This document shows, piece by piece, positions 5,632 to 31,781 of a stretch of DNA of 32,000 nucleotides. The notes beneath the pieces were generated by a model. The model did no database searches. It saw only the letters and a program-made list of their open reading frames with translations, and had not been told where the DNA came from. Position numbers and translations under genes: made by a program. This DNA is from Candidatus Electronema halotolerans. GTDB lineage: Bacteria; Desulfobacterota; Desulfobulbia; Desulfobulbales; Desulfobulbaceae. The stretch lies in NCBI GenBank assembly GCA_942493095.1, contig OW818675.1, positions 960,001-992,000 on the forward strand. The letters run 5' to 3'. The number at the start of each line of letters is the position of its first letter. Positions within the stretch are counted from its first letter, which is position 1.

Positions 5632-6246
5632 TCAGCCTGTCCGCACATCCACCCGGCCTTTCCACGGAAACAGCATGGGCACCTGTTCGCAGTAGCGGCG
5701 GTAGGGTTCGCCCAAATCGCGCAGCAATTTGCGTTCCTCCAGCAAGGCACCGATGATGAGATACATGCTGAGGATGAGCCGTGAGGGCCAATTAACATCA
5801 GTGATCGGCCCGATTGTCCAGAGTATGGGCAGCCCGGCAGAGTACCACGGATGACGGACGTAACTGAGCACGCCTCTGCTGGTGAAAGGCAGGGACGGTG
5901 CTTCTTCGCCCTGCCGCCAGCTCTGCCACTGTCTGATGCCGACCAAATAGTTGAGGTCATAAACAACTTGCCCGCCGAGCAGTAAAAACAGGGCATAGAG
6001 AAGAAGCAGACTCTGGGGAATGCGCAGCCAGCCTGCCCAAGAAAACACTATCTCCTGCGGCAGACTGTATTGCAGCCAGATAAGGGGCAACAGGGTCAGG
6101 CCTGCGAACAAGGAGTAAATCAGCCGGTAGGTGCCACGCAGCATTGCTCCCTGTCGTTGCAGCCAGTCATTAACCGGCGCGGAAATCAGCAGACTGTGCA
6201 GAGCGCACCAGAGTATGATGAGAAAATAGAGCGATATTTTCGACAT
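5632..6246 (-). CDS. membrane methyltransferase, ICMT/PEMT-like family
   Basis: A multi-TM protein with RHPWYSAGL...LIIGALLEERKLLRDLGEPYRRYCEQVPMLFPW, typical of isoprenylcysteine carboxyl and phospholipid methyltransferase-like proteins. Confidence 0.65.
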   Translation of the reverse strand: MSKISLYFLIILWCALHSLLISAPVNDWLQRQGAMLRGTYRLIYSLFAGLTLLPLIWLQYSLPQEIVFSWAGWLRIPQSLLLLYALFLLLGGQVVYDLNYLVGIRQWQSWRQGEEAPSLPFTSRGVLSYVRHPWYSAGLPILWTIGPITDVNWPSRLILSMYLIIGALLEERKLLRDLGEPYRRYCEQVPMLFPWKGRVDVRTG

Positions 6247-6265
6247 GAGCTTGTTCTATGACTGT

Positions 6266-7639
6266 TCATACTCTAATCAGCCGCAGCAGCTCGTCAGTCT
6301 TTTCACGCAGCAGCGGCGCATCAGCACGGGTTTCGACATTCAGGCGCAGGACTGGCTCGGTATTGGATTTGCGGAGATTGAAGCGCCAGTTTGGATAGGC
6401 GACAGACAGCCCGTCCGTGTAATCCTTTTCCCCGTCATGATATTGCGCTTCCGCCTGCTGAATGACTGCGTCAGGGTCAGTCACCGTGGAGTTGATCTCG
6501 CCGCTGACCGGGAAGGCCCGCATCCGTTCATCCACCTGAGCAGACAAAGTTGTGTTCTGCTCGCTCATGAGCTGACAGAGCAGCAGCCACGGCAGCATCC
6601 CAGAATCACAGCAGCCAAAGTCGTGGAAATAGTGGTGCGCTGACATCTCGCCGCCGTACATGGCCTGCTCGCGGCGCATGGCCTCCTTGATAAAGGCATG
6701 GCCGGTTTTGACCATCACCGGCTTGCCGCCTGCTGCCAGCACCATCTCCTGCGTGTTCCAAATCAGCCTTGGATCGTGAAGAATCACGCCGCCGGGCTGC
6801 GCTCTCAGCATCGCTGTGGCCAGCAGGCCAACTATATAATAGCCTTCAACAAAGCGTCCGTTCTCATCAAAAAGAAAGCAGCGGTCACAGTCACCATCCC
6901 AAGCAATGCCCAGAGCAGCCTTGTGCTCACGCACTGCTTGGGCGGTCTCCTCCCGGTTCTCCGGCAGAAGCGGATTGGGCACTCCGTTCGGAAAGGTGCC
7001 GTCCGGCTGCCAGTTGAGCTTGATGAAGGTGCAGGGCAGCCGCTCCTCCAGCAGATCAATGACCGGCCCGGCGCAGCCATTGCCCGCATTGACCACGATC
7101 GTGAACGGTTTGAGCGCGGCCACATCAACATAAGAAAGCAGGTGTTCGATATAGCGGCTCTTATCTGGCAGGACACGGCATTGCCCAGATTGCGCCGGGG
7201 CAGCGGCCAGCGCGCTGCGGAACCAGTCTGCGGATGCGGCCATCTCCGCCACCTCCAGCAGGCCGGAGTCAGCAGAAATGGGCCGTGCGCCTTGGCGGAC
7301 AAACTTCATGCCGTTGTATTGGGCTGGATTATGGCTGGCCGTGATCATGATGCCGCCGCCGATGCCCGCCGCCTCGCCGTTGAACACGGCAAAATACACC
7401 TCTTCCGTGCCGCAGAGGCCAATGTCGATCACCTCAATGCCTGCCTTGGTCAGCACCTCGCAGAGGCTTGCGGCAATCTCCGGGCTGGACAGGCGGACAT
7501 CCCGGCCTATAATGATCTTGCTGGCTTCTGTCCGGCGGCAGAAGGCCAGCCCGATCCGGGCGGCAATGTCCGGGTTCAGTTCTTCCGGGACCCGGCCCCG
7601 GACATCATAGGCAGTGAAGCAGCGCAGCGGTGTTGACAT
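6266..7639 (-). CDS. manB: phosphomannomutase / phosphoglucomutase
   Basis: Near-collinear similarity to E. coli ManB/CpsG from memory (CFTAYDVRG, TASHNP active-site Ser loop, FDGDCDRCFLFDE, GGEMSAHHYF, SNTEPVLRLNVE). GAGGAG SD lies upstream of the ATG at 7639. Confidence 0.9.
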   Translation of the reverse strand: MSTPLRCFTAYDVRGRVPEELNPDIAARIGLAFCRRTEASKIIIGRDVRLSSPEIAASLCEVLTKAGIEVIDIGLCGTEEVYFAVFNGEAAGIGGGIMITASHNPAQYNGMKFVRQGARPISADSGLLEVAEMAASADWFRSALAAAPAQSGQCRVLPDKSRYIEHLLSYVDVAALKPFTIVVNAGNGCAGPVIDLLEERLPCTFIKLNWQPDGTFPNGVPNPLLPENREETAQAVREHKAALGIAWDGDCDRCFLFDENGRFVEGYYIVGLLATAMLRAQPGGVILHDPRLIWNTQEMVLAAGGKPVMVKTGHAFIKEAMRREQAMYGGEMSAHHYFHDFGCCDSGMLPWLLLCQLMSEQNTTLSAQVDERMRAFPVSGEINSTVTDPDAVIQQAEAQYHDGEKDYTDGLSVAYPNWRFNLRKSNTEPVLRLNVETRADAPLLREKTDELLRLIRV

Positions 7640-14452: not shown

Positions 14453-15287
14453 ACAGGGCCAAGGCGCGCTGATAGACCTGTGAGCGCGGCAGGTCCAAGT
14501 CAGCGGCAATTTGGCGGGCCGCGTCTTTGAGCGAGCTGCCCTGTTCGCGGTGCCAAAGAATCAGTTCATCCAAATTGTCCGGCTTGCCGCTGTCAGGTGC
14601 TGTTTCATTGCCGCTGATGATCAAAACCAGCTCGCCCCGCGCCCGACCGCGCAGCTGCTCCAGCAGGGCAGACAGCGGTCCGGCCAAATGCTCCTCATGC
14701 AGCTTGGTCAGCTCCCGGAAGAGCTGGGCCTGCCGGTCGCCGAATATTTCCAAGCAGTCCTGCAAGGCGGCTTCAATCCGGTGCGGGGCCTCGTAAAAAA
14801 TCAGCGGACAGGGGAGCGTTTTGAGCACGGCAAATTGCTTGCGGCGTTCGCTCTTTTTTGCTGCCGGGAAGCCGCCAAAGTAAAAATCTGTGCCCGTCAG
14901 TCCGGCCACAGAGAGTGCGGCAGCCAAAGCAGACGGCCCGGCCACTGGCACAACAGCGATTCCAGCCGCCCGCGCCGCCTGCACCAGCACTGCGCCAGGG
15001 TCGGAAAGACCGGGAGTGCCCGCATCTGAGACCAAGGCCACATTCTCGCCTGCCAGCAGCCGGGCAACAAGGGCGGCAGCCTGCTCCTGCTCATTCTCGC
15101 GGCGGCAGCTGATCAGTTTTGCCCTGATGTTCAGGTGGGAAAGCAGCTTGCGGGTGCGGCGGGTGTCCTCACAGGCGATGAGGTCCGCCGCAGCCAGTGT
15201 TTCCCGCAGCCGCTGGCTGACATCACCGAGATTGCCGATTGGCGTGGCGACAATGTGCAGGAGGCCGCTTTGTTTCTCCGGGTTCAT
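14436..15287 (-). CDS. rsmI: 16S rRNA (cytidine1402-2'-O)-methyltransferase
   Basis: LHIVATPIGNLGDVSQRLRETLAAADLIACEDTRRTRKLL and GTPGLSDPG are the tetrapyrrole-methylase-fold RsmI signature. Confidence 0.9.
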   Translation of the reverse strand: MNPEKQSGLLHIVATPIGNLGDVSQRLRETLAAADLIACEDTRRTRKLLSHLNIRAKLISCRRENEQEQAAALVARLLAGENVALVSDAGTPGLSDPGAVLVQAARAAGIAVVPVAGPSALAAALSVAGLTGTDFYFGGFPAAKKSERRKQFAVLKTLPCPLIFYEAPHRIEAALQDCLEIFGDRQAQLFRELTKLHEEHLAGPLSALLEQLRGRARGELVLIISGNETAPDSGKPDNLDELILWHREQGSSLKDAARQIAADLDLPRSQVYQRALALYARIT

Positions 15288-15340
15288 GAATGGGCACTGT
15301 ACGTGCGGCAGGCGGCGGTGTCAATCAAAATAAACGGTAA

Positions 15341-15447
15341 TGTCGAGAATGGTGCAGGAATCAACCCGCGAGGAAACATTGAAGAAAATTCGGGTCGGGA
15401 AATTGGCCTTGATCACGCCGGTGAGCACATCTATTGAAGGACGCTGC
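15341..15447 (-). pseudogene. 107-bp internal fragment of ftsK (motor-domain segment), orphan copy
   Basis: Ungapped alignment to 21011-21117 within ftsK at a constant offset of 5670 gives 98/107 identical by hand count. It would encode [35 protein letters not shown] versus fts[36 protein letters not shown]. There is no start codon and no surrounding ftsK sequence. Confidence 0.85.
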
Positions 15448-15466
15448 CCAAGACGAGCAAACTTTA

Positions 15467-16021
15467 CTACGGTAAGGACGAATTAGAACTGGCGCATTTT
15501 CTGCGCTGTTTATCAAGCAAGATTTTTCTTGCCGCTCTCTTGGGCAGGCGGAGCAGGAAGACAATCGGTCGTTCAATAAGCGAGATGGACGGCGACAGTT
15601 TTCCCAGCAGGAGATTGACTGTCCGCCACGTTCGGCTTTCGTAATGCGTCGTCCTGCCGTTTCGGGTTACTTTGCTGATGATGCCGAGGAAATCAGCCGC
15701 AGAAACGGGCGGGTCGCAGCGGTATCTGCGGTCGCTCTTGGTCAGCAGATGTTGCTTTCCGTCAAGCTGGATGCAACGAAGAAAGCGATGTGCTTTCAAT
15801 CTGCCGTTGACATGATAGACCGCAACATCGCCACAGCGGAGCGTATCCGCCTGTATTGGTTTGATGAAAATCAAGTCGCCCTCGCGGAGCAGCGGTTTCA
15901 TGCAGTGACCGGTGAGCGTGATTTCCACCGGCTCGCCCTTTTGCAGCAGCAGGATGATGATCTTGTAATAATCATGCTTTTTGAAAAACTCCTCCTGAAA
16001 GGTGCTGCCGGAATCTGTCAT
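15467..16021 (-). CDS. S24/S26-fold peptidase-like protein with Cys at the nucleophile position
   Basis: [13 protein letters not shown] aligns to the G-x-S-M-x-P-x-L-x-x-GD nucleophile motif of LexA/signal-peptidase-fold enzymes. GDVAVY...LKAHRF aligns to the GD(i/v)v.f...(K/H)R(v) general-base region. The start overlaps the kinase stop (ATGA). Confidence 0.6.
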
Positions 16022-16854
16022 ACCGTTTCAATATGTTCCGTGAGCAGGCGGGCTGCTGCCGTCGCATCGTTGTGGATAAGCTGAAAAGCATTCGCCTTTT
16101 TCACTACTTCGGCCATCTGCTCAATGCTTGCAACGGATTTTGCCCTGCCGATCTGGGCATTCATCAGGCGCAGCAGGGCTGCTGATTTCTTCATCGGTGC
16201 AAGAGAAGGCGGTTTGTCCGGGTCGTAGCGGACAAAGAAGATGCTGTGCAGCGGCGCAGGTTTGCCGTGTATCGCCTTTGGCACGGCAATCTGATGATCC
16301 GCACCAAAGCTGCGCACCGGCCAGGATGGAGCAAGGCGGACAATACCGGTCTCTTTGCAGGACACGGTTTTGAGAAAGGGATGAACAATCTGTCCGGCAT
16401 CCAGCAGGCCGACTTCATCGGTAAGATAAGCCCAACCGTGGTTTGCGATCAATTCAAGAGTGAGGGTTGATTTACCGTGACCGCTTTCGCCGAGCAGCAG
16501 GATTGCGCTGTTGTTTCTGCTGACCGCACCGGCATGAAGGGTGATCAGCTCTTGTTTGTCAATCTGGTTAATGGCGTGGCCGGAGACGATATTCTCCAGT
16601 GCCTTGCTCAGGAGGGCAGAGGGAACGGCGTGCAGCTCGCGGCCCCAGTCAAAGGCGATTTTCCCTTGTTTCCAGATGGAAAAGCAGTCGGGCTGATCAG
16701 CACTCGGCAGAACGGTTATTTGTGCTGCTGTCTTATCCGGCGGAGCAGGGCTGAGAAACTCCTGCCACATGTAATCGCAGAACTGGTTAAGTTCTGCGAG
16801 CGGGGTTTCAAGGCGGATGAGGGTTTTGGTGATGGAGTAGAAGCTCTCAGGCAT
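16018..16854 (-). CDS. HprK-related P-loop kinase (HPr kinase C-terminal-domain-like)
   Basis: LHAGAVSRNNSAILLLGESGHGKSTLTLELIANHGWAYLTDEVG matches HprK-related kinase A/B-type proteins. The start overlaps the radical-SAM stop by 8 nt. Confidence 0.75.
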   Translation of the reverse strand: MPESFYSITKTLIRLETPLAELNQFCDYMWQEFLSPAPPDKTAAQITVLPSADQPDCFSIWKQGKIAFDWGRELHAVPSALLSKALENIVSGHAINQIDKQELITLHAGAVSRNNSAILLLGESGHGKSTLTLELIANHGWAYLTDEVGLLDAGQIVHPFLKTVSCKETGIVRLAPSWPVRSFGADHQIAVPKAIHGKPAPLHSIFFVRYDPDKPPSLAPMKKSAALLRLMNAQIGRAKSVASIEQMAEVVKKANAFQLIHNDATAAARLLTEHIETV

Positions 16855-18259
16855 GGCTTTCCGCCTGCACTTCCTCCACCAAGCCTAATTTCTGGAAGGC
16901 GGCAAGCTGGCCGTAGATGTCGTCTTTGATGGTGTCAAATTCCACTTCGCAGACGTTGGCAATCTCTTGGGCGATTTGTTGGGCGGTGCGGTGGCCGTTG
17001 ATGAGATCCCAGATGGCCATCCCCATTGAATTTAATGCGTACCTTTTATCGTGATTACATAACAACCCTTCTTCTTTTAAATCTATCGTTGTTATGTTTG
17101 GACATCTCGTCATTACAGTACGTTGAGCAGAAGGAAGATCATTTTTACCGCATCTGTTATCATAAGGTATGTTTTTCATTTGAAATTCATTTTTATTTTT
17201 GATCATATATCTCAGAACGGCAGTAATTATTGTTTTGTTAAACAAACATAAATAATTAGCAGACAAATCGTTATTATATTCGTGAATACAGACACCTCCG
17301 CACAAAAAAATATATTGGCACTCCGAGCAGTGATCCCTGTATATGTTTTGAATATTGATGTTTTCTATTTTTTCTTTATCTATCCCGTTACGGGTGTTGC
17401 CAATCAAATATTTTGAGTGACTGACAAAACGATGACAGGGAAAGAAGTCTCCGTTAAAAGATACTGTTATTTTGTTTCTTCCAATACCGCATCTCGTAGC
17501 TTTCTTTTGAGAAAGAAAAGTATTTATTATACGTTGAACGTTATATATCGTGCTGTTTAAATTCCCCTTTTCTTTATACGAAAGAATAATACTATCAACT
17601 ATATCTAACAGTTGCTGTTGACCAACAGCATTACTATCATTAGTGGTTACAGGTGTTACTATTCCAAATACTACCATTTCATTATTTTGCAAGATTCCTA
17701 TATCAGAGTAATTCCTTAAAATATCGTAAGGTAAATCAGTGTTTGCTGTCAAAGTAACTCTAATTTGATACTTCACGTTGTATTTTTGCAATATTTTTAT
17801 ATTATTAACTATTTTGCTAAAACTCACACCCCCCTTCTTGTATCTTCTTTGAAGATCATGTGTCTGTTTTTTTCCGTCTAACGTAACTTGAATATGAACT
17901 TTGTTATCGTGACAAAACTTAGCTATTTCATCATCTATTAAAGTTCCATTAGTTATTATTCTAAATGATAAGTCATTTTTATGATCTATTTTACTTATTA
18001 ATCTATTGATTGTATATCGAATTTTAGAAAACTCAATTAATGGTTCTCCGCCAAAAAATGATACTTTTACACATCCACGATGTTTCTTCTCATAAATATC
18101 AATGAAGTTGTCAATATCGTTTTTAGATAACGATTTTTTTCTATTCGTATACTTATCACCAGCTTTCAGATAGCAGTAAGTGCATTGAAGATTACAAGAA
18201 CCGGTTATATCTATCTCGACATCTGATACATCTTCCAACATGCACTTAATCTCCGCCAT
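16847..18259 (-). CDS. radical SAM / SPASM-domain peptide maturase with a C-terminal PqqD (RRE) domain
   Basis: CNLQCTYCY is the CX3CX2C motif. SFFGGEPL is the GGE motif. The SPASM region is CGIGRNKITVSFNGDFFPC...CSECQYIFLCGGVC (CX2CX5CX3C). The C-terminal ITTIDLKEEGLLCNHDKRYALNSMGMAIWDLINGHRTAQQIAQEIANVCEVEFDTIKDDIYGQLAAFQKLGLVE is PqqD-like. An alternative ATG at 18241 has GGAG 9 nt upstream. Confidence 0.85.
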   Translation of the reverse strand: MAEIKCMLEDVSDVEIDITGSCNLQCTYCYLKAGDKYTNRKKSLSKNDIDNFIDIYEKKHRGCVKVSFFGGEPLIEFSKIRYTINRLISKIDHKNDLSFRIITNGTLIDDEIAKFCHDNKVHIQVTLDGKKQTHDLQRRYKKGGVSFSKIVNNIKILQKYNVKYQIRVTLTANTDLPYDILRNYSDIGILQNNEMVVFGIVTPVTTNDSNAVGQQQLLDIVDSIILSYKEKGNLNSTIYNVQRIINTFLSQKKATRCGIGRNKITVSFNGDFFPCHRFVSHSKYLIGNTRNGIDKEKIENINIQNIYRDHCSECQYIFLCGGVCIHEYNNDLSANYLCLFNKTIITAVLRYMIKNKNEFQMKNIPYDNRCGKNDLPSAQRTVMTRCPNITTIDLKEEGLLCNHDKRYALNSMGMAIWDLINGHRTAQQIAQEIANVCEVEFDTIKDDIYGQLAAFQKLGLVEEVQAESHA

Positions 18260-18422
18260 TATTACAGCAGCTTTGCCATGATGCCATATCGGAACACTCA
18301 GATACAGATTCACCGTTTAAATCTGTCAATTCGCATATATCTGGTTTAACATAATTCCCCTTTAAAACCTTCAACCTTCCCTCTTTAATCCCGTTTTTTC
18401 CTTTCTCATTCATATTTTCCAT
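18246..18422 (-). CDS. candidate RiPP precursor peptide (58 aa, Cys-rich C-terminus)
   Basis: MENMNEKGKNGIKEGRLKVLKGNYVKPDICELTDLNGESVSECSDMASWQSCCNNGGD. AGGAGGAG SD lies 4 nt upstream of the ATG at 18422. The stop overlaps or abuts the radical-SAM start. The gene shares the low-GC composition of the maturase. In-frame ATGs further upstream lack an SD. Confidence 0.65.
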   Translation of the reverse strand: MENMNEKGKNGIKEGRLKVLKGNYVKPDICELTDLNGESVSECSDMASWQSCCNNGGD

Positions 18423-18560
18423 GATCTCCTCCTGTTCATTCATTTCGCCAGCCATTATCGGCAATTAGATCCAACCCAATCAACCTTCATCACCATGCCA
18501 ACGAAGAAAGGCTCAAATCATCATGCAGCCTCAATCCGTTTCAGTCCGCTCAGATCAACT

Positions 18561-18958
18561 CTAAAAAAATCGGAAGCCCGCCTGCTCGAAATGATGATCA
18601 AAGGTCAGCGCAGTGGTGATCTGCATTTCCCTCATCACCACAAACGACAGACAGTCAACCAAGCCCCACGTTTTATCCTGATATCTGTTAAACAGGTTCA
18701 CTGCCTGCTTGAACAGAACAGGATTCATATAAATCAGCGTCATTTCGTCAGCTTCCTGAAAGGCGCGAATAAGCTGGCTGCATTGACGGCGGCGATGCGT
18801 GACAAAGCATTGCCCGTTTCCAGCAGGACAGCATCGGTCGTCACCAAAGGATAACCAGCGCACTGTTCCGCCAAGCTCAAGGCCCGCTTATGATAATTGT
18901 CGTTCTCGTTGATTAGGGCGATGATATACCCTGTATCAACAAACAAAGGCTCAAGCAT
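18561..18958 (-). pseudogene. vapC: PIN-domain VapC toxin, disrupted by one frameshift
   Basis: The N-terminal half (MLEPLFVDTGYIIAL...TTDAVLLETGNAL, ORF 18740-18958) and C-terminal half (NRYQDKTWGLVDCLSFVVMREMQITTALTFDHHFEQAGF, ORF 18561-18863) of one PIN domain lie in different frames. The shift maps to about 18770-18810. Confidence 0.75.
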
Positions 18959-19193
18959 TCTTCTCGCCGTTCAAGTAGGCATCAATGTTTTCAGAGAAGT
19001 CCGCAGGCCCGCTGATTTTAATCTCCTGCAACCGTGCCAGCAGGGAAGCCTTTGGCTTTGGCAGGGCAGCATCCTCGTCAATAATCACAATCACGCGCAC
19101 CGATTTGTCATCCCATGCCTGACGATACGCATCTGGAATAGTGACGGTCACTTTGCCGTCACGAGCAACCGCGTTCAGTTCAACGGCATTCAT
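18951..19193 (-). CDS. VapB-type antitoxin (small DNA-binding antitoxin upstream of vapC)
   Basis: An 80-aa ORF overlapping the vapC start by 8 nt, the typical TA architecture. The family assignment rests mainly on context. Confidence 0.5.
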   Translation of the reverse strand: MNAVELNAVARDGKVTVTIPDAYRQAWDDKSVRVIVIIDEDAALPKPKASLLARLQEIKISGPADFSENIDAYLNGEKNA

Positions 19194-19264
19194 AATCGTT
19201 CAGTTTCTTTTCTTGAGCGCGGCTAAAATATCTTGTGAAACTTCCAATCGCATTGTTTCATTCA

Positions 19265-20452
19265 TTATCTTCTTCCGATCACATACACATTGACTAATTT
19301 CAGCCAATACCTCGGATACGCCATTGCCAGCTTTCCAGCGGTGCTGACATCATACTTTCCTGCCATCCCCATCCACTCTTTCTCCGGCACAAAGGTGCGG
19401 AAAATATAAGCTGCTTTTGCGGCTGGACTCGGTTGCTGCCTCAAACTGACAAAATAACTCTTCAGTCTTTTCAAAAGAGGCATCCTGACTTTCTTAACAT
19501 ATACTTCTTCGCGCAAAAATGAAGAAAAAATCGCCTCCCTGTTCTTCAATGTCTTCTCAGCAAGAAACTGTTCTGGCACCGGTGCATCCAGCAGGATATG
19601 GGCATAACTCAAGCCTGTCATAACTTCCTTGCGCAGCTCAGGAACGACACATATTTGTTCTATTTTATGCCAATCAAGTGTTTTCTCATGCTTCCGCAGC
19701 AGTTCGTTGATGTCGCACAGTTCTCTGAGAACAACTCCCATATAATAAACATGCTTGAAAAAATGCGTACAAAGATGAATCAGCATCATTTCCTGTGTCA
19801 ATTTATGCTGATTACCGCTGACATTTACAGAACTTGCTAAAGCCTGCCGCGTGATCTCTCGAAATCTGTTGTCCTGAAAAAGTGACCTATGCACTTCAAT
19901 AGCTACTTTTTTGCATAATGGAGGAAGATGCAGACATGTTTCCGGCAGCTCGCCATGCGCTTGCGACTTTTTGACCGCATGAAGCGGTAAAGAGGATGTG
20001 TAACCAAAGTCCCTCAACTGATACCAATTCTCTTCCACATATTCCTGCTCCACCAGCAAATCAATATCGCACATTGAGCGAAGAGCAATATTCGGATACA
20101 GGCTTTGAATCAGTTCTATTCCTTTCAGCGGAATGACTTTGTTCGGCAGAATGCTGGCAATTTCCTTGAACGCTTCAAGCATCTTGGCATTTCTGAGTGC
20201 AGTGTCGTAATATTCAATTTCAGTGTCGTAATATTCAATTTGAAACCTTTTCAACAATTCTTTCGGCAGCAGATCAGTCAAATCATGCTGCCTGAAGGCG
20301 TAATAAATGAACTGACTGACCCCATGCGTGAAAGCCTTTTTCGCCACCGCCGACCAGTCCAAGCCGCTGCCTGCCAGCTCTTTCAGTGCGGCAATGTTGT
20401 CTTCCGCCAGATGCAGCCGGGCCGCATTGAAGATGAATGCGTCTTCCTTCAC
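19265..20452 (-). CDS. nucleotidyltransferase family protein (NTP_transf_5-like)
   Basis: RSMCDIDLLV, the surrounding pattern and the roughly 390-aa size match the uncharacterised nucleotidyltransferase family that co-occurs with PqqD and HprK-like genes. GTG start. GC is visibly lower than the flanks. Confidence 0.65.
   Translation of the reverse strand: MKEDAFIFNAARLHLAEDNIAALKELAGSGLDWSAVAKKAFTHGVSQFIYYAFRQHDLTDLLPKELLKRFQIEYYDTEIEYYDTALRNAKMLEAFKEIASILPNKVIPLKGIELIQSLYPNIALRSMCDIDLLVEQEYVEENWYQLRDFGYTSSLPLHAVKKSQAHGELPETCLHLPPLCKKVAIEVHRSLFQDNRFREITRQALASSVNVSGNQHKLTQEMMLIHLCTHFFKHVYYMGVVLRELCDINELLRKHEKTLDWHKIEQICVVPELRKEVMTGLSYAHILLDAPVPEQFLAEKTLKNREAIFSSFLREEVYVKKVRMPLLKRLKSYFVSLRQQPSPAAKAAYIFRTFVPEKEWMGMAGKYDVSTAGKLAMAYPRYWLKLVNVYVIGRR
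20200..20241. repeat. perfect 2 x 21-bp tandem duplication inside the nucleotidyltransferase gene
   Basis: cagtgtcgtaatattcaattt occurs at 20200-20220 and again at 20221-20241. It is in frame and duplicates EIEYYDT in the protein. Confidence 0.95.
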
Positions 20453-20573
20453 GCCAAGAGAGTTTTTTAAATGAGAATGTTTCTCATTATCAATCTGGTC
20501 AAGCAGTTAAAAATTATATGCCCCAAGAATAGCACTCCAGAATAAGATGTCAAGACATTTTTTTGCTGTTGCG

Positions 20574-20605
20574 AAAAAAATACCGGCCAGCAAGCTGCTG
20601 CGCCG
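20574..20605 (-). terminator. putative intrinsic terminator of ftsK
   Basis: On the minus strand a 9-bp stem with one bulge (CGGC-G-CAGCA gct TGCTG GCCG) starts 1 nt after the ftsK stop. It is followed by GTATTTTTTT. Confidence 0.5.
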
Positions 20606-20606
20606 A

Positions 20607-22826
20607 TTACTCCATCGAAGCCAGCACTTCTCTTGGCCGTGAACCATCGGACGGCCCGACAATGCCGTCGCGCTCCATCATCTCGATCATGCGGGCGGCC
20701 CGGTTGTAGCCGACCCGCAGCCGCCGCTGGAGCATGGAGATGGAAGCCTGCCGGGTCTCCTTGACCACAGCCACTGCCTGATCATAGAACTGATCATGCT
20801 CCTCCTCGCCGCTGTTGCCGCCGTTCTCCTCCTCGGCAAACTGGAGGACAGACTCGTCATAATCCGCACTGCCCTGCTCCTTGAGGAACGCAATGATCCG
20901 CTCGGTTTCAGCCTCGGATATGTAAGCCCCGTGAATGCGCTTGAGCTTGGCCGCGCCCGGCGGGAGAAAGAGCATGTCGCCTGCGCCGAGAAGGTGTTCG
21001 GCCCCGGAGCTGTCGAGAATGGTGCGGGAATCGACCCGCGAGGAGACCTTGAAGGAAATCCGGGTCGGGAAATTGGCCTTGATCACGCCGGTGAGCACAT
21101 CCACTGAAGGCCGCTGCGTGGCTAAGATGATGTGCATGCCAGCGGCCCGCGCCATCTGCGCCAAGCGGGCGATGGAGGTTTCCACATCTTTTGATGCGAC
21201 CATCATCAAATCAGCCAGCTCATCAACAATAATGACGATATAGGGCAGCTTTTCCTCAGCGGTCTGTTTGTTGTAGGTGGTGAAGGATTTGACCTTGGCC
21301 TCCTCCAGCAGTCGGTAGCGCCGTTCCATCTCCCGCACCGCCCAAAGCAGGGCGCGGCTGGCCATCTTCGGCTCGACCACCACCGGATGGAGCAGATGCG
21401 GAATGCCCTCATAGGCTGACAGCTCAATCCGCTTGGGATCGATCATCAGCAGGCGGACCATGTCTGGCGGGGCCTTGTAGAGCATGGAAGCAATGAAGGC
21501 GTTGATGGCCACTGACTTGCCCGCGCCCGTGGCTCCGGCAATCAGCAGATGCGGCATCCGGGCCAGATCAGCCACTGTCGGACGGCCCACCGAGTCAAAA
21601 CCCAAGGCAACCGTCAGATAGGAGCGCGAGTTTTTATACGGATTGGCAAGGAGGATGTCGCGGAGAAAGACGGTCTTGCGCTTGGGATTGGGAATTTCAA
21701 TGCCGACCGCCGCCTTGCCTGGAATCGAGCCGACCACCCGCACTCGATCTACTTTGAGCACCATTGCCAGATCATCGGCCAAGTTGACAATCTTGCTGAT
21801 CTTGATGCCAGCAGCCGGGGCGAATTCATACGTGGTCACCACCGGTCCCGGCGAAATGCCAACCACCTCACCCTGCACTGAGAAATCAAGCAGCTTGGCA
21901 GTCAAGATCGCGCTGGTTTCTTCATAATGCTGCCGGTCAATTTCCACATCCTCCAAGCTGTTCTCCTCCAGCAGGGTGATGGGCGGCAGCTCAAAGTTCT
22001 GCCAGTCAACCGGTTTTTTCTTCTTGGGAGGCTCCTCTGTTTTTTTGCCCTTCTTATCCGGTGATGATGGACTGCTGCCAGCTTCCGCCTTGCCTGCCTC
22101 ACGAAGAAAAGGCAGCTTCTGGATGATCACCGCAGGCAGGCTGGGCAGATTTCTGACAGGAGCAGGTTCCGGTGCTGGCGGTGGCGGCAGAGCTTTGCGC
22201 TGCTCGCGCTCCTCCTTCCACGCAGTCAGTTTTTCCCGCAGCGGCTCTTCCAGCGCAGCCATCTTGCCGCCTGCGTTCCGAGCCTGACCCCAGAGCCAGA
22301 AGGAAAAGGCGATGGGCGAAAAGCGCACTGCCGCCATCAGGGAGAAAATCAGGAGCAGGAGCAGGAGCAGGGCCGAGCCAACCCCGCCGAGCAGATTGCC
22401 GAGCAGGCGGTGCAGCAGGCTGCCGAGAAAGCCTCCCGGTGCAACTAACTCTGGTGGAAAAATAAGTTTATCCAAACTTGCCAAGAGACCGGAGGCGGCC
22501 AGCAGCACTCCGGTCAGTCCGGCAACAATGAAGGGAAGACGGTCAATGGCGGCTTGGGCCGTGAGAACAGTCGCAGCGAGTTGGAAAAAGAGCAGGGGCG
22601 GAAAAAAGGAAATCAGGCCGAAAAAGGAGAACAGATAGCGGGCTGTGTAATAGCCGAAATGGCCGCACCAGTTCGCTGCCGGGAGCTGGACTTGCGGTTG
22701 CGAGCCGAGCAGCGGCAGGCTGTAGCTGATCAGACTGAGCAGCAGAACCATGCCCAGAAACAGGCAGGTGACTGCCGCCGCCTCCTGCTGGAGCCGGGCC
22801 TGCCGGGCCAAGGCTGCGAGGCGCAT
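20607..22826 (-). CDS. ftsK: DNA translocase FtsK
   Basis: N-terminal TM helices, a Pro/Lys-rich linker, the motor domain (PHLLIAGATGAGKS, IVIIVDELADLMM, ATQRPSVDV) and the C-terminal gamma wHTH (SISMLQRRLRVGYNRAARMIEMME). The ATG at 22826 is preferred over the TTG at 22829. Confidence 0.95.
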   Translation of the reverse strand: MRLAALARQARLQQEAAAVTCLFLGMVLLLSLISYSLPLLGSQPQVQLPAANWCGHFGYYTARYLFSFFGLISFFPPLLFFQLAATVLTAQAAIDRLPFIVAGLTGVLLAASGLLASLDKLIFPPELVAPGGFLGSLLHRLLGNLLGGVGSALLLLLLLIFSLMAAVRFSPIAFSFWLWGQARNAGGKMAALEEPLREKLTAWKEEREQRKALPPPPAPEPAPVRNLPSLPAVIIQKLPFLREAGKAEAGSSPSSPDKKGKKTEEPPKKKKPVDWQNFELPPITLLEENSLEDVEIDRQHYEETSAILTAKLLDFSVQGEVVGISPGPVVTTYEFAPAAGIKISKIVNLADDLAMVLKVDRVRVVGSIPGKAAVGIEIPNPKRKTVFLRDILLANPYKNSRSYLTVALGFDSVGRPTVADLARMPHLLIAGATGAGKSVAINAFIASMLYKAPPDMVRLLMIDPKRIELSAYEGIPHLLHPVVVEPKMASRALLWAVREMERRYRLLEEAKVKSFTTYNKQTAEEKLPYIVIIVDELADLMMVASKDVETSIARLAQMARAAGMHIILATQRPSVDVLTGVIKANFPTRISFKVSSRVDSRTILDSSGAEHLLGAGDMLFLPPGAAKLKRIHGAYISEAETERIIAFLKEQGSADYDESVLQFAEEENGGNSGEEEHDQFYDQAVAVVKETRQASISMLQRRLRVGYNRAARMIEMMERDGIVGPSDGSRPREVLASME

Positions 22827-22829
22827 CAA

Positions 22830-26969: not shown

Positions 26970-28545
26970 TTATACTGCGGCATCGGGGATAAAAGGACTT
27001 CCAAGGAAAGCATCTTTGATCGCTTCAAAAATGTTTCTTGAATTTTTACGGACCGTGGAGATATATCCCCGGATACAGGCGAATCGTTCTGCCCCCTCAA
27101 GTGTTCGGAAGCAGCCGGAAACCTTCTGCTTGACCTTGATCATCCGCACATCTCTTTCCGCCGCGTTGTTGTCGAACGGAACCCGGAAATCATACATGAA
27201 TGCGAGGGTCTCCGCCCTGTAATCACGCATCCGTGTCAGCAAATTGAGCGGCGGAGTCTTCTTCACCCGTCCTCGTTTTTTCTCCTTAGGGTACCTCGAA
27301 AAATACCGATTTTGCCGAAGGCGTGATCGAATAATCAGACATTTACAACGCAACAACTGCCAAAAATACCAATTTTTCGAGGTACCCCTTAGGCGGAGTG
27401 AACGGATTGTCCGCAAAACCCCGTCGGACGATTTCATCATACCGCCGCTCAAATTCTTCGATCTTCTCCGGCGTGAAGCCGTCCCGATCCGGCTTCAGCT
27501 TTTCAGCCGCGCCTTTTATTTCAAGCAGCAGCTCGGCCATCTCGCCGGCCCAAACTTGTCCGTACTGTTTTTCTATGAACTTGAGTTCCCGGAGATGATG
27601 CGCATTGCACAGCGCATGACCGCAGTTTTCATAGCTGAAGTACGATTTCCAATGATCATGCGTCGCTGTTCCTGTGAACTTTCCAAGGATTCCCGCTGCG
27701 TCCATCGCCTCTTTTCCCCGTTTTTCATGCACCGAATAAAGGGTGAGGCAGTTCGTCGAAGCGACATGCAGCCAGTGCAGCTTCCCTTTCACGCGGACTC
27801 CGCTTTCATCGGCATGTAACACATCGGTATTCATGAGCAGTTTTTCGACTGCTTCCGTTGAAGGACGCACGCATCCGCAAAGCTCTTCCGATGCCTTCAG
27901 CAGCGAACCCTCGGAGACGGAATGCCCGGTCAGGTCTTCGATAATCTGCGCAGCCCGTTCAAGCGGAATATGATGCTGGTTCGCGAAATATGCCGCCCAA
28001 GTTTTCACCCCCGTGCCGTAACGGATGCCCTGTCCGACGTTTTCCGGGAATTTGCCTCTGTTTTCCGTGCCGCAGCCGGGACAGATTTTTATTTCCGCTC
28101 GATGCGAGGTCACTTCAATCCGAATCGCCGGAATATCATAAACCTGCCGTTCCTCCTCTCCGACAGCGACGACATCCGCAAGCGACATTTTGCAAGCCGC
28201 GCATTCCTCGGATTTATACCTCTCCGTAGAATCCGGCGCCGCAGACCGCTCAAGAGTATGCCCTTGATGACCTGGCTGGCCGCCGTTCGGCTTCCTGCCG
28301 GACTCTCTCAGACTTTCCGTTCGCTTCGCTTTACCGTATCCATCGCTCGAAGGCGGTTTCCCGCTGTTCCGACTGTTTTTCGACAGCCGGGCCTGCAAAT
28401 CCTTCAATATCTCGGACTGCTTGGCTGACTGAGCGGCGAGGTTTTCAACCTGCGCAGTTATACTGCTAAACAGGGCGACGACCGCTTCTTCGCCTTCTGC
28501 GTATGCAGCACGGACTTCTTTTTCACTAGGAACACTGAAATTCAT
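26970..28545 (-). pseudogene. IS66-family transposase split by a 97-bp insertion
   Basis: ORFs 27343-28581 and 26970-27452 carry consecutive IS66 transposase regions (zinc-ribbon-like CAACK...CPGCG, HADESG, CNAHHLRE, then [24 protein letters not shown]). Removing 103 bp (element plus one repeat copy) joins ...PFTPPK to [12 protein letters not shown]... in frame. Confidence 0.85.
27289..27385. mobile_element. MITE-like 97-bp nonautonomous element
   Basis: It has perfect 15-bp terminal inverted repeats, GGTACCTCGAAAAAT and ATTTTTCGAGGTACC. These are flanked by the direct repeat CCTTAG (27283-27288 and 27386-27391). It has no coding capacity. Confidence 0.7.
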
Positions 28546-28560
28546 AACGGCAGCATAATC

Positions 28561-28609
28561 TTTACCTGTTGATTTTGTCAAGAGGCTTGGCGGATGCCTG
28601 AGTAGTTAC
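28561..28609. repeat. 49-bp IS66 end sequence, copy 1 (part of the IS)
   Basis: tttacctgttgattttgtcaagaggcttggcggatgcctgagtagttac is identical to 28878-28926. Confidence 0.9.
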
Positions 28610-28954: not shown

Positions 28955-28983
28955 TTGACAAATGTTCGAGGGAGGAATACAAT
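28955..28983 (+). promoter_or_regulatory. sigma-70-type promoter candidate for the DUF3859 gene
   Basis: TTGACA (28955-28960), a 17-nt spacer, then TACAAT (28978-28983), about 130 nt upstream of the ATG at 29111. Confidence 0.5.
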
Positions 28984-29110
28984 ATTTAAAATCAGATTGT
29001 CTCTGCGGCTGCAGCAGATAATTTTAACAACTGGAACCAAGTTGAGGAGAGATGTTATGAATCAGAATTACAAGGAAAAATCAAAATGCATGGTATTGAA
29101 AGGAGAGAAA

Positions 29111-29611
29111 ATGAAAAGAAACATCTCGTATGTTTTTTCCGCTTGCTGCATATTCTTTTTTACAGCGTTGATTGCGCCTCTTGCTGATGCGAAATCAGAA
29201 ATTATTAGTGCTAAGGTTGTTGATTATGGAATTATTGAGCTTCAGACGACGGCATCTACTGAACAGCCTGATGATGTAATAATCAATCAATTAGCCACTT
29301 CTACAGAGAGAATACCTGCCAAGATCGGGACAAGTTTCGGAATCATTTTTAAAGTAGATGGTCCTCCTGATGGAGAATTTATCGACCTGACTGCAAATTG
29401 GCTATTTCAAAAAGATGGTGTCAAAAATCCTGAAAGTGGAGAATTTTTACATCAGGCTACAGTACCTTTTAAAGCTAATATCGGCAAGCTGTCTTTGCAA
29501 TATGCAACTTTTGACTCTGCGAATGACTTGGTTCCTGGCAATTGGGTAATTGAAATATGGCATCAAGAAAGAAAACTCTGTGAGAAAAAATTCGAAGTGT
29601 ATATGCCCTGA
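29111..29611 (+). CDS. secreted DUF3859-like protein
   Basis: Signal peptide MKRNISYVFSACCIFFFTALIAPLADA. The remainder (IPAKIGTSFGIIF...GNWVIEIWHQERKLCEKKFEVY) resembles DUF3859. AGGAGAGAAA SD. GC is low. The ATG at 29111 is chosen over the 28955 extension. Confidence 0.6.
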   Translation: MKRNISYVFSACCIFFFTALIAPLADAKSEIISAKVVDYGIIELQTTASTEQPDDVIINQLATSTERIPAKIGTSFGIIFKVDGPPDGEFIDLTANWLFQKDGVKNPESGEFLHQATVPFKANIGKLSLQYATFDSANDLVPGNWVIEIWHQERKLCEKKFEVYMP

Positions 29612-29689
29612 TGCTAAAAGTCGCGTCGCTCTTCGATGAACCGGATGGAATCTACTGATTGCCCTGTCTTGCAGGCGGCTTGTTGTGAA

Positions 29690-29720
29690 GGGTGCGCCCC
29701 GCGCACCCTGTTTTTTCTTT
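29690..29720 (+). terminator. rho-independent terminator after the DUF3859 gene
   Basis: GGGTGCGC ccc GCGCACCC is followed by TGTTTTTTCTTTTT. Confidence 0.75.
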
Positions 29721-29827
29721 TTCCATTCCATCCTCTCTTCCTAAAAAAACTGCTTGCCTTTTCACCTCTAATGCCATCCTACAGTAGAATTTCAACAGCA
29801 AAAAATGAACTCAGCTCTGCTAAAAGG

Positions 29828-29856
29828 TTGACACCTTATGCGGGGGTGGGTAATAA
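29828..29856 (+). promoter_or_regulatory. sigma-70-type promoter candidate for the small-peptide array
   Basis: TTGACA (29828-29833), a 17-nt spacer, then TAATAA (29851-29856), about 60 nt upstream of the ATG at 29919. Confidence 0.45.
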
Positions 29857-29918
29857 TTAATTGATTTCAGTGACGGGCGCAGCAATTCATCAATTGACCC
29901 TAAAAAAGAAGAAACATC

Positions 29919-30047
29919 ATGAAACGCAACACCAGCAGAAAGACAGACCGCAAGACTCTTGCCCGGAAGACCGACACGAAAGGGAAAAATTTTCCGGTCT
30001 CGATTCGCAGCGATATTAAAGCAGGAATAGCAATGGCCATTATATGA
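29919..30047 (+). CDS. small basic peptide, paralog 1 (42 aa)
   Basis: MKRNTSRKTDRKTLARKTDTKGKNFPVSIRSDIKAGIAMAII. The first 38 nt are identical to paralog 3. Not in the ORF track because it is under 60 aa. Confidence 0.55.
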   Translation: MKRNTSRKTDRKTLARKTDTKGKNFPVSIRSDIKAGIAMAII

Positions 30048-30295: not shown

Positions 30296-31781
30296 GTAAG
30301 CGATCACAGGGTACCGCTCAGACCCAGCTTAAATCCGGCATCTGTCCTCTGAAATAGCAGCGCATGGCCTCGGTGAGCACCTCGAAAGTGGATTTTCCCC
30401 GAAGCAGGCATGTCTGCCGGAGGGAAAGGATTCGTTCAACCCAGCGGTTTCCCTTGTCGCTGTCAGTGCCCTGACTCCGTTTGCGCCACAGCACGCCGAA
30501 GCGGAGCATCCGTTCCGCTGGATTATTTGTCGGCTCTACGCCTTCTTCGAGCAAGAAAGTGAACAACGCCTCCATTTCCTTGTCAATATGACGGACAAAC
30601 CTCCCCGCATCACTGTCGCAATCGCGCCAGCGTAGGATAAGTCGGCAGAGCCGGGCATAAAATGCGGACCATTCACCTTTGGTCGGCGGGTCTTTCGCCA
30701 TGCGGCAGAGCCGCCGCAGTTCCGCAGCGGCCCATTTGCCGCAGGCGGCCAGTTCAGGGTCAGCGCGCTCCGCAAGGCCGTCTGCCCGGCGGATAAGATG
30801 CGCGAGGCAAGTCTGCCGCTTGCCGACCCATTTTTGGTACACGTTGTATCCGTCGCTGATGAGAATACCGTTCCAAGCACCGATCAGTTCTTCAAAGGCT
30901 TCCTTAGAGCGTTTCGGATGAATCATGAAGAACGCGGCCTGCCGGTTCGCCATAACCCATAACCAGCGCAGCCTGCCGCCAGTTTTCCACGTTGTTTCAT
31001 CAACATGTCCGATATCCCCGCTTGTGACGGCAGCCCGGACGGCCTCATAGTGCGGCGCGACAGCCGCCGAAGCCCGGTCAATGATCTTCTGCACCGCCCC
31101 GGCGCTGATAGGAACGCCGAGCACGGAACGGATGAATTTCCGCACAGTTCCCCGGCTGCTGCCGTCCATGCCGCTCAGTTCGGCAACCAGCGCGGTGAAC
31201 CGCGCCCCGAAACCGGTTCTGAATTCATCGGGAACACAGCCTCTGACGGTTTTGCCGCAGGCGGCGCATTCCCCTTTATAAAGAAGGAAATGCCTGACCT
31301 GCATCACGATTTCCGGCAGTTCAATATGCTGATGCGTATAATATGACCGTATGTTTTTGAATTTGCCGCAACCGCAGGAGCAGGCGGAAGGATACATTTT
31401 TTGCGTTTCTGTCGGCGGCATCAGCTCCTGACGATATCCACGCCGCTTTTTCCGGGGCTTCCCCGCCTGATCTCTCTGCCGTTTTTCTGTAAACGGAGAG
31501 TCGGAAGAAGGCGGCCTGTTCGAGTTCGAGGAATCTTCGCCGAGTTTCGCCTCAAGCTCTTCGACCCGTTTTCTCAGCCGCGTTACCTCAGCGATCAAAA
31601 AAGACAGCAGCTTCCGCACCGCAGGAGGTGTAGCGGCAAGGTCTTCCTCGCTTATCTCAAAATTTTCACGATGGAACGGGGCGGTCACAGCTTTCTCCTG
31701 CGGAAAAAATTACTGCTCACAATTTATCCAGTTGCGATGCCAAGCGCCAGTGTTTTTTAGAGACACCCTGTGATCAGTTAC
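30296..31781 (-). mobile_element. intact IS66-family insertion sequence (single ORF) with 8-bp target duplication
   Basis: IRs are GTAAGCGATCACAGGGT (30296-) and ACCCTGTGATCAGTTAC (-31781), matching at 15/17. They are flanked by GTTTAAAC at 30288-30295 and 31782-31789. Confidence 0.9.
30318..31688 (-). CDS. IS66-family transposase
   Basis: N-terminal coiled coil (RKRVEELEAKL), Cys clusters (CSCGCGKF, CAACGK), HVDETTW, CLAHLIRR and TNNPAERMLR motifs. GTG start with AGGAGAAAG SD. Confidence 0.9.
   Translation of the reverse strand: MTAPFHRENFEISEEDLAATPPAVRKLLSFLIAEVTRLRKRVEELEAKLGEDSSNSNRPPSSDSPFTEKRQRDQAGKPRKKRRGYRQELMPPTETQKMYPSACSCGCGKFKNIRSYYTHQHIELPEIVMQVRHFLLYKGECAACGKTVRGCVPDEFRTGFGARFTALVAELSGMDGSSRGTVRKFIRSVLGVPISAGAVQKIIDRASAAVAPHYEAVRAAVTSGDIGHVDETTWKTGGRLRWLWVMANRQAAFFMIHPKRSKEAFEELIGAWNGILISDGYNVYQKWVGKRQTCLAHLIRRADGLAERADPELAACGKWAAAELRRLCRMAKDPPTKGEWSAFYARLCRLILRWRDCDSDAGRFVRHIDKEMEALFTFLLEEGVEPTNNPAERMLRFGVLWRKRSQGTDSDKGNRWVERILSLRQTCLLRGKSTFEVLTEAMRCYFRGQMPDLSWV

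Follow-up and report, generated by a model that had tools for sequence, protein, structure and literature searches.

The locus at 15467-20452 of a 32,000-nucleotide stretch of DNA from the cable bacterium Candidatus Electronema halotolerans (contig OW818675.1, positions 960,001 to 992,000; hereafter the window) raises the question of what a small Cys-containing peptide, a radical-SAM/SPASM enzyme fused to a PqqD domain, an HprK-like kinase, a peptidase and a nucleotidyltransferase, all encoded on one strand, would make together. A preliminary description had proposed a composite operon for a modified peptide, and an open reading frame (ORF) map combined with domain scans revealed all the gene features claimed there to be present. 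In the deposited annotation, the genes of the cluster are listed as hypothetical, save for one "HPr kinase C-terminal domain" protein. Having compared the cluster with related loci, we consider it probable, with some reservation, that an intact operon of two modules lies here, whose product is a peptide made on the ribosome and modified after translation.

Gene order and precursor peptide

The last four genes of the cluster, encoding the precursor, the radical-SAM enzyme, the kinase and the protease, abut or overlap and are all co-directional. The TAA stop of the precursor occupies 18248-18246. For the radical-SAM gene, ATG 18259 and ATG 18241 are start candidates, the longest ORF beginning at GTG 18313; as claimed earlier, the precursor overlaps the former start and abuts the latter, which lies 4 nt beyond its stop. 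The start at 18241 is favoured by the deposited annotation (464 aa) and by the N-termini of homologues. The radical-SAM gene ends at 16847 and overlaps the kinase ATG (16854) by 8 nt, and the kinase and peptidase genes have the ATGA at 16018-16021 in common (4-nt overlap), both overlaps being found as first described.

The same order and overlaps were found at approximately 15 distinct loci in Electronema, Electrothrix, and Bacteroidales or other low-GC genomes. Labelled L0xx below, the related loci come from metagenomes and genomes, L008 being a Logan contig. The five-gene combination thus recurs: the order small ORF, radical-SAM::PqqD gene, kinase and protease, with the nucleotidyltransferase nearby, is present at L001/L003, L004, L006, L007, L008, L012, L014, L017 and L025. 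As the order is repeated in independent loci together with the 8-nt and 4-nt overlaps, the arrangement is more than chance. The cluster is rare, with only 3 matches among 185,579 species-representative genomes. The nucleotidyltransferase is present at most related loci, and many relatives carry an ABC exporter between its gene and the precursor, where the window and L008 have a VapBC pair. Neither a lasso cyclase nor a B2 protease was found among the scanned ORFs of the window, in agreement with the preliminary description, or among the genes called or scanned at the related loci; an ABC exporter was likewise absent from the scanned ORFs of the window.

Translation from ATG 18422, which has an AGGAGG box 5 nt upstream, gives a precursor of 58 aa, MENMNEKGKNGIKEGRLKVLKGNYVKPDICELTDLNGESVSECSDMASWQSCCNNGGD; the alternative ATG 18443 gives 65 aa, and neither version had an exact match in the protein collection. 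The peptide consists of a leader with the motif RLKxLKxNYxxP, a CSDMAS box and the tail WQSCCNNGGD. Each homologous maturase is preceded by a small ORF with the leader GIKExRLKxLKxNYxxP, which contains YxxPx[LIV]; a nearly invariant C[ST]DMAS box follows at a constant distance of 15-16 residues from the YxxP proline, and after it comes a hypervariable tail. The small ORF, claimed from the window alone as a precursor, is borne out by this conservation beside every homologous maturase examined, and a Cys-containing precursor lies directly upstream of the maturase in all loci examined. Searching 5.8 billion proteins with a profile of 13 precursors returned only 35 relatives, all of which carry a [CR][ST]DM[AGQ][ST] box and several of which come from Electrothrix species (LOE2, AUS4, AR3).

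The tails differ in kind. Some alleles have motifs of the CxxxD type (CG[TV]GD in L017, CGRGD in L018); short Cys-free tails are found in L020 (box CTDMAS, tail NIAD) and in five more precursors of the profile search. At L025, in a genome of 6.6 Mb, two tandem precursors with the tails SPMGSCGSGDTYPGA and CCCVVIKY stand ahead of one radical-SAM::PqqD gene (6106-6703).

Enzymes of the cluster

The Pfam families named in the preliminary description fared differently: PF04055, PF05402 and PF14907 were supported, and SPASM, Peptidase_S24 and Hpr_kinase_C stayed under their gathering scores, so that the SPASM, peptidase and kinase assignments rest on NCBIfam models and predicted folds.

The maturase has a radical-SAM domain (PF04055, 2e-19) with the cluster motif C16x3C20x2C23 (numbered from M1 at 18241). 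Its SPASM part contains seven cysteines read from the sequence, the motif for two auxiliary clusters (C251, C269, C305x2C308x5C314x3C318 and C332), with a Pfam match of 18.4 bits under a gathering score of 21.5; a PqqD domain (PF05402, 2e-9; 37.9 bits against a gathering score of 23.4) forms its C-terminus. All three elements had been claimed, the SPASM part as a CX2CX5CX3C cluster. NCBIfam ranked PapB first (1.8e-56), followed by the Nif11-type (1.9e-47), SCIFF (5.6e-43) and anaerobic sulfatase maturase (anSME; 5.7e-33) models. With 191.8 bits against the 340-bit cut-off of the PapB equivalog (NF047865), the enzyme is, judged from these scores, related to PapB, yet no PapB orthologue. In the PDB, CteB was the best match (1e-31) ahead of anSME (3e-20), and only CteB residues 101-423 were aligned, which implies that the maturase is without the usual N-terminal peptide-binding domain. 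An N-terminal RRE is absent, and the C-terminal PqqD domain stands in its place; the nearest NCBIfam models of this domain are lasso PqqD and ScmD, both below cut-off, and leader binding is predicted for it.

A role as anaerobic sulfatase maturase or other non-peptide SPASM enzyme was rejected, since PapB, Nif11, SCIFF and CteB all outscore anSME; the grouping with peptide thioether SPASM enzymes (PapB 1.8e-56 against anSME 6e-33) answers a doubt raised at the outset. A known anti-phage defence system was also discarded, PADLOC having revealed only generic radical-SAM similarity to viperins.

The kinase-like protein matches TIGR04352 (HprK_rel_A) over its full length at 7e-21, with 74.6 bits against a cut-off of 200, and Pfam Hpr_kinase_C with 17.8 bits against a gathering score of 33.3. 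In a six-sequence alignment, the P-loop GESGHGKST (G122-x-S-G-x-G-K-S-T130; invariant at G122, S124, G125, G127, K128, S129 and T130) and the pair D146-E147 were invariant. The AlphaFold model (pLDDT 95.7) gave ATP-dependent phosphoenolpyruvate (PEP) carboxykinases (5e-9) as top Foldseek matches, along with HPr kinases (8e-5), two groups that share one fold; a sequence search of the PDB returned P-loop matches only. Among 1.84 billion representative proteins, 4565 relatives were detectable, and with only 5 of them at <=1e-30, the kinase belongs to a small, separate clade. A distant relative (30% identity) likewise adjoins a SPASM::PqqD gene, on its 3' side. A more distant system at L009 (7775-17511) comprises a 44-aa ORF, a 561-aa radical-SAM::PqqD protein, two methyltransferases, a GAF protein, a separate PqqD, a ScmC-like protein and an ABC-2 transporter; this gene set indicates that the pairing of an HprK-like protein with radical-SAM/PqqD is a wider theme.

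For the peptidase-like protein, the earlier assignment to an S24 fold holds at the level of the clan fold only. The Peptidase_S24 match (22.6 bits) lies below its gathering score of 23.3, and the archaeal signal peptidase I model TIGR02228 matches at 5e-9; these scores place the protein nearer to S26B (SEC11 or archaeal signal peptidase) than to S24. A profile search of the PDB found SEC11C and SEC11A at 2e-5, with C40 at the position of the catalytic Ser, H78 at that of the catalytic His, and D97 and D103 aligned to the KGDNNxxDD region. In place of the serine nucleophile of GxSMxP, there is thus a Cys, which is invariant in 37 of 37 family members (G-H/Y/S-C40-M-K/R-P; GHC40MKP in the window). 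H78, K76, D97 and D103 were invariant in the same alignment. The predicted model (pLDDT 85.7) matched SEC11C (1e-4), LexA (6e-4), SipA (8e-4) and SpsB (5e-3) in Foldseek; a membrane anchor is not evident in it, and its C-terminus is formed by a long helix. Only 45 members of this Cys-type family were found among 5.8 billion proteins.

The nucleotidyltransferase, correctly placed upstream on the same strand by the preliminary description, matches PF14907 with 145 bits against a cut-off of 31.2 and has a DxD motif of the metal-binding type (CDIDLL) read from the sequence; a sequence search of the PDB gave no match. Its gene in the window contains a perfect 21-nt in-frame tandem duplication at 20200-20241, adding 7 residues (EIEYYDT twice), which is not present in L008.

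Tail and radical-SAM module swapped between near-identical strains

A blastn comparison of the window with L008 revealed 96.7% identity over 21090-18397 (ftsK 3' end, nucleotidyltransferase, vapBC and the first nine leader codons) and 97.0% over 17020-15402 (PqqD from M408 of MAIWDL, kinase and protease). Between these flanks, there was a single 51-nt match of 78%. The intervening cassette comprises codons 10-58 of the precursor, the radical-SAM/SPASM domain in its entirety and the portion of the PqqD domain that forms beta-strands; the radical-SAM cores are 34% identical at the protein level, and the tail of L008 is CMGYMCCAGYA against WQSCCNNGGD in the window. The right-hand breakpoint at 17020/17021 was seen again in comparison with L007, L006 and L004, and the left one at 18397 with L007. 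It is thus shown that a tail plus radical-SAM module, reaching from the leader to the MAIWDL motif, is swapped between near-identical strains, and the PqqD domain of the fusion enzyme in the window therefore spans a recombination boundary.

An all-against-all comparison demonstrated that radical-SAM similarity tracks the type of tail rather than the kinase. Between the window and L008, the kinases are 98% identical, with a radical-SAM identity of 34% and different tails; L008 and L007 have near-identical tails and a radical-SAM identity of 79% at a kinase identity of 67%. L006 and L025 share the tail CCCVVI[RK]Y (kinase 64%, radical-SAM 55%), and the tails of L017 and L018 differ (kinase 73%, radical-SAM 33%). 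The cassette type of the window was found in Electrothrix sp. AR3, with the same tail and 71% identity over a 274-aa partial protein.

The cassette has a GC content of ~30% (GC at third codon positions, GC3, 27%) in a frame of ~55%, with a GC3 of 72% in the constant half of the PqqD domain and of 62% in the kinase gene. At the cable-bacterial loci (window, L004, L006, L007, L008, L011, L014), the cassettes have 27-34% GC and encode proteins only 26-55% identical, and the constant genes beside them are far more GC-rich; the loci of Bacteroidales have a low GC content throughout. Import from a low-GC pool or selection may account for the AT-rich composition of the cassettes. Other loci of cable bacteria have the GC step as well, among them L011, in whose free-standing PqqD gene it lies; to this gene, the constant PqqD half is 83-97% identical in DNA, against only 40-63% to the radical-SAM-fused PqqD of the same locus. 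An origin of the breakpoint solely by fusion of tandem PqqD genes is weakened, because the free PqqD gene of L011 is itself AT-rich upstream and GC-rich downstream of MAIWDL, which makes the boundary more than the scar of a fusion, namely a point of recombination in general.

Three architectures were distinguished. In the majority (9 of 13 radical-SAM loci compared, plus the truncated L015), the radical-SAM enzyme is fused to a single PqqD domain. At L011, L013, L018 and the disrupted L026, a radical-SAM gene with a complete PqqD domain precedes a separate PqqD gene, behind which the kinase gene lies. L020 has no radical-SAM gene and consists of precursor, PqqD, kinase, protease and nucleotidyltransferase, which implies that the base system is made up of leader plus box, PqqD, kinase, Cys protease and nucleotidyltransferase. 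By this comparison, the radical-SAM enzyme is an add-on that arrives with a Cys-containing tail. The earlier view of a maturase attached to a PqqD/kinase/nucleotidyltransferase/peptidase cassette is borne out by L020 and by the separate second PqqD of L011, L013 and L018. At L026 (6331-7853; Ca. Electrothrix communis, CP130629), the radical-SAM gene is in fragments, the genes for the separate PqqD, the kinase and the protease are unbroken, and the precursor tail is Cys-free and Gly/Asn-rich (SILGRGNGGGNRGGNGGGNS).

The coordinates of the features in the window are compiled in Table 1. The kinase genes of the window and L008 differ in 16 synonymous and 5 non-synonymous codons, as expected of purifying selection on this gene, and the comparison indicates such selection on the constant genes.

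Table 1. Features of the cluster and its surroundings in the window
Feature	Position	Strand	Basis
Precursor peptide gene, 58 aa	18246..18422	minus	sequence, AGGAGG box, homologous small ORFs
Radical-SAM/SPASM::PqqD gene, 464 aa	16847..18241	minus	PF04055, PF05402, NCBIfam, PDB match
HprK/PEPCK-fold kinase-like gene, 278 aa	16018..16854	minus	TIGR04352, alignment, predicted fold
Signal-peptidase-fold (clan SF, SEC11/S26B-like) protease gene, 184 aa	15467..16021	minus	TIGR02228, profile, fold
NTP_transf_5 nucleotidyltransferase-fold gene, 395 aa	19265..20452	minus	PF14907 3e-42
VapB-like antitoxin gene, 80 aa, between nucleotidyltransferase gene and precursor	18951..19193	minus	paired with PIN gene
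VapC (PIN) toxin gene, frameshifted	18561..18958	minus	PF01850 match in both halves
Promoter-like site directly upstream of precursor	18454..18483	minus	consensus scan, 9/12 positions; weak evidence only
Exchangeable AT-rich cassette	17021..18396	minus	blastn against L008, composition
Constant half of PqqD domain, M408 of MAIWDL to stop	16847..17020	minus	DNA comparisons, GC3 72%
107-nt fragment of ftsK interior, far end of island	15341..15447	minus	direct repeat of 21011-21117
Second 107-nt repeat copy, within intact ftsK (20607-22829)	21011..21117	minus	92% identity to first copy

The cluster is flanked by housekeeping genes (rsmI, a Kdo-transferase gene, ntrX, ftsK, efp and ilvC). The 107-nt direct repeat brackets it as an island, the stray copy sitting between the protease gene and rsmI, and both ends of the L008 contig fall within this ftsK repeat. 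Neither an integrase nor a clear mobility mechanism was found for the island; there was no tRNA gene across the window and no Rfam family above its gathering score in 15000-21200. Farther downstream, two IS66-family transposase genes (27343-28581 and 30318-31688) lie around a lower-GC stretch (~41% at 29001-30000), which holds the gene of a DUF3859 protein (28955-29611).

The VapB of the window is 98% identical to that of L008. The VapC gene is split near 18785 by a 1-nt deletion in a C run, the L008 gene being intact (132 aa), and either the gene is a true pseudogene or the missing base is a sequencing error in the homopolymer. Depending on the genome (L007, L008, L027, L028), VapBC, HigB-like/HTH or UPF0175/DUF3368 genes separate the nucleotidyltransferase or ABC gene from the remainder of the cluster; in Electrothrix sp. 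AR3, a UPF0175/DUF3368 pair lies just upstream of the precursor, after the ABC transporter gene, and L006 has an AbiEi/AbiEii pair a few kb off the cluster. A short ORF at 19200-19307, MAEISQCVCDRKKIMNETMRLEVSQDILAALKKRN, resembles the start of a 92-aa ORF upstream of the L011 precursor, which in turn is similar in appearance to the UPF0175 antitoxins that L027 and L028 carry at this position. Judged by this resemblance, the short ORF was probably left behind by a toxin-antitoxin module that had been inserted here earlier.

Proposed pathway, alternatives and significance

In the pathway that we favour, a constant module, consisting of the first part of the leader, the half of the PqqD domain that is helical, the HprK/PEPCK-fold kinase, the Cys signal-peptidase-fold protease and a PsmN-like nucleotidyltransferase, would act on the leader (YxxPx[LIV]) and the C[ST]DMAS box. 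The exchangeable AT-rich module would supply the remaining precursor with its Cys tail, the CteB/PapB-like radical-SAM/SPASM domain and the other PqqD half, made of beta-strands. The PqqD domain would dock the leader, and the radical-SAM enzyme would then form at least one thioether cross-link from the tail cysteines. According to two papers, PapB joins Cys to Asp or Glu or to the residue bearing the C-terminal carboxylate (PMC9413430, PMC12373016); the acceptor in the window may be the C-terminal Asp. Subsequently, the kinase would phosphorylate a Ser or Thr of the C[ST]DMAS box, in analogy to the HprK homologues PadeK and PsmK, which phosphorylate lasso precursor peptides (PMC6993621, PMC8498205). 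The nucleotidyltransferase-fold enzyme would decorate this phosphate by analogy with PsmN, a member of an uncharacterised NTP-transferase family that is needed for the addition of a hexose (+162 Da) to the lasso phosphate and whose D134 and D136, the counterparts of the DxD motif in the window, are essential (PMC6993621). On this analogy, decoration of a phosphate is more likely than the nucleotidylation of the peptide that had been considered earlier. Finally, the Cys protease would cut off the leader.

Several observations weigh against this pathway. Every family-specific NCBIfam model (PapB, HprK_rel_A, ScmC, ScmD, ScmE and lasso PqqD) scored below its cut-off, so that function is carried over from distant relatives, and a product both cross-linked and phosphorylated is what we infer from the gene content. 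Lasso kinases target a C-terminal Ser; here, no precursor stops at the box Ser, either by terminating at the box or by having a Ser directly after it as C-terminus. The Cys of the box is kept even at loci without a radical-SAM gene, for which the model does not account, and the Cys variant of the protease is a putative peptidase only. At the window locus itself, neither a receptor nor an immunity gene was found, no exporter is present and VapBC occupies the slot of the ABC transporter of the relatives; with the frameshifted PIN gene and the 21-nt duplication in the nucleotidyltransferase gene, the window copy could be drifting out of use.

Among the alternatives, the one that holds up best, albeit still unlikely, is that two products are made: the constant module would turn the box alone into a small product or signal, the protease would cut between box and tail, and the radical-SAM-modified tail would be a separate, optional product. 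The near invariance of the box beside hypervariable tails fits this scheme, as do the loci without a radical-SAM gene, which retain the box with a tail of 3-5 residues, and the signal-peptidase fold, which suggests cleavage after small residues such as the A-S that ends the box. Against it, the lack of a precursor stopping at the box counts here too, the cleavage site between box and tail is putative, and Met at position -3, which the box would place there, is not typical of signal-peptidase sites. A leader-binding radical-SAM enzyme needs the tail to be joined to the leader, which agrees equally well with both schemes.

Doubtful, and less likely than two products, is a role of the HprK-like protein as ScmC-type ATP-dependent scaffold or chaperone, in which case the NTP_transf_5 protein would nucleotidylate the peptide, for instance by AMPylation, and no phosphate ester would be formed. 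The HprK_rel_A score far under its cut-off (75 against 200 bits) would allow this, and the kinase-like protein matches the uncharacterised ScmC model TIGR04249 at 4e-3, with PF27840 matches in related loci; in addition, the biochemical mechanism of PsmN is unresolved (PMC6993621). The P-loop and acidic pair, however, are invariant in the six aligned sequences, the predicted fold matches phosphotransferases (PEPCK, HPr kinase), and the only characterised peptide-pathway relatives are kinases.

To the same low degree, we reckon with a decaying remnant, i.e., a cluster which no longer makes any product in Ca. Electronema halotolerans. Besides the missing exporter, the PIN frameshift and the 21-nt duplication, leftovers of an ftsK fragment and of a UPF0175 antitoxin in the island and the disrupted radical-SAM gene of the related E. 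communis locus point this way. All five biosynthetic ORFs are intact, however, their start and stop codons overlap, the genes of the kinase and the protease differ from those of L008 mostly at synonymous sites, and the frameshift lies in a homopolymer of the toxin gene and could be a sequencing error. That an assembly chimera explains the radical-SAM::PqqD fusion and the drop in GC from ~55% to ~30% inside one gene at 17020 was rejected as extremely improbable, since a separate Logan contig encodes the identical junction at 100% identity, at least 5 other loci from other samples have the same GC step and breakpoint, and the reading frame is unbroken.

Compared with known systems, the operon resembles the ranthipeptide/SCIFF enzymes PapB and CteB (PDB 5WGG) in its CX3CX2C core, seven-Cys SPASM motif, Cys-rich precursor and best NCBIfam and PDB matches. 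It differs from them in having no N-terminal RRE and a C-terminal PqqD domain, in its PapB score (192 against 340 bits), in a precursor without SCIFF or PapA-like repeats, and in the cassette of kinase, protease and nucleotidyltransferase in which the enzyme is embedded. The joint presence of an HprK-family kinase, an NTP_transf_5-type protein and a PqqD-type protein resembles the lasso clusters of paeninodin (PadeK) and pseudomycoidin (PsmK, PsmN), as does the ABC exporter in relatives of the window locus; lasso leaders also carry a YxxPx[LIV]-like motif, like the leader in the window. Unlike in lasso clusters, there is neither a cyclase nor a B2 transglutaminase-like protease, the candidate Ser/Thr is internal and not C-terminal, and the kinase stands apart from lasso kinases in its small clade.

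An HprK-related protein along with a PqqD homologue is also found in the SynChlorMet (Scm) and HPr-rel-A (HprK_rel_A/PqqD_rel_X) families, Scm including radical-SAM/SPASM enzymes as well. With scores far below the cut-offs (ScmC 16.5 against 125 bits, ScmE 76.6 against 400, ScmD 27 against 100), the window locus is no member of either. Both are in-silico NCBIfam/TIGRFAM families, themselves uncharacterised, for which a Cys signal-peptidase-like protease is not described; to our knowledge, no precursor has been identified for Scm. The protease resembles the SEC11/S26B, archaeal and SipW-type signal peptidases in fold and in motifs at the catalytic Ser, His and Asp positions (GxSMxP, HR, KGDNN-like), and differs in its invariant Cys, the lack of an evident anchor and its context in a cytoplasmic peptide-maturation operon.

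A hypervariable peptide together with the part of the enzyme that handles it, set between conserved flanks with sharp breakpoints, is also known from agr groups and comQXP pherotypes. In contrast to these, there is no receptor gene in or near the variable segment of the window, the variable enzyme is a radical-SAM maturase, and evidence of signalling at the window locus was not found. In the open-access literature, no description of the five-gene combination was found, and nothing relevant on HprK-related kinase A/SynChlorMet/TIGR04352, on PF14907 or on peptide natural products in cable bacteria. By the scores of all these family-specific models, the cluster belongs to no named system, its parts being from known superfamilies. 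It is set apart by its Cys protease of signal-peptidase fold, by the box that its precursors conserve, and by the swapping of a tail plus radical-SAM cassette among strains, one breakpoint of which falls within the domain that binds the peptide.

This family would unite radical-SAM cross-linking with tailoring by a kinase and a nucleotidyltransferase, previously found only in lasso peptides. Being small (~35-45 members in 5.8 billion proteins) and well delimited, it is a clear target for heterologous expression. If active, the protease would be a leader protease of a new type, in which a member of clan SF has naturally switched from Ser to Cys. The exchange of tail and radical-SAM domain is a natural experiment on the points at which these proteins can be recombined and would be useful for the engineering of hybrid peptide maturases.

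Little is known of the cell-cell biology of cable bacteria, and the exchange suggests that a peptide which they secrete or display on their surface is under diversifying selection. We venture, as a speculation that is more likely wrong than right, that the cluster is a strain-specific "identity" peptide system for kin discrimination or antagonism in a multicellular, filamentous organism. A fixed chassis of leader, C[ST]DMAS box, kinase, Cys protease and nucleotidyltransferase, itself the mark of a new peptide class, would be combined with interchangeable AT-rich tail/radical-SAM cassettes. If so, neighbouring strains would make differently cross-linked peptides with which they could tell kin from non-kin or antagonise non-kin, as in agr or comQXP pherotypes, with the radical-SAM enzyme as the specificity determinant.

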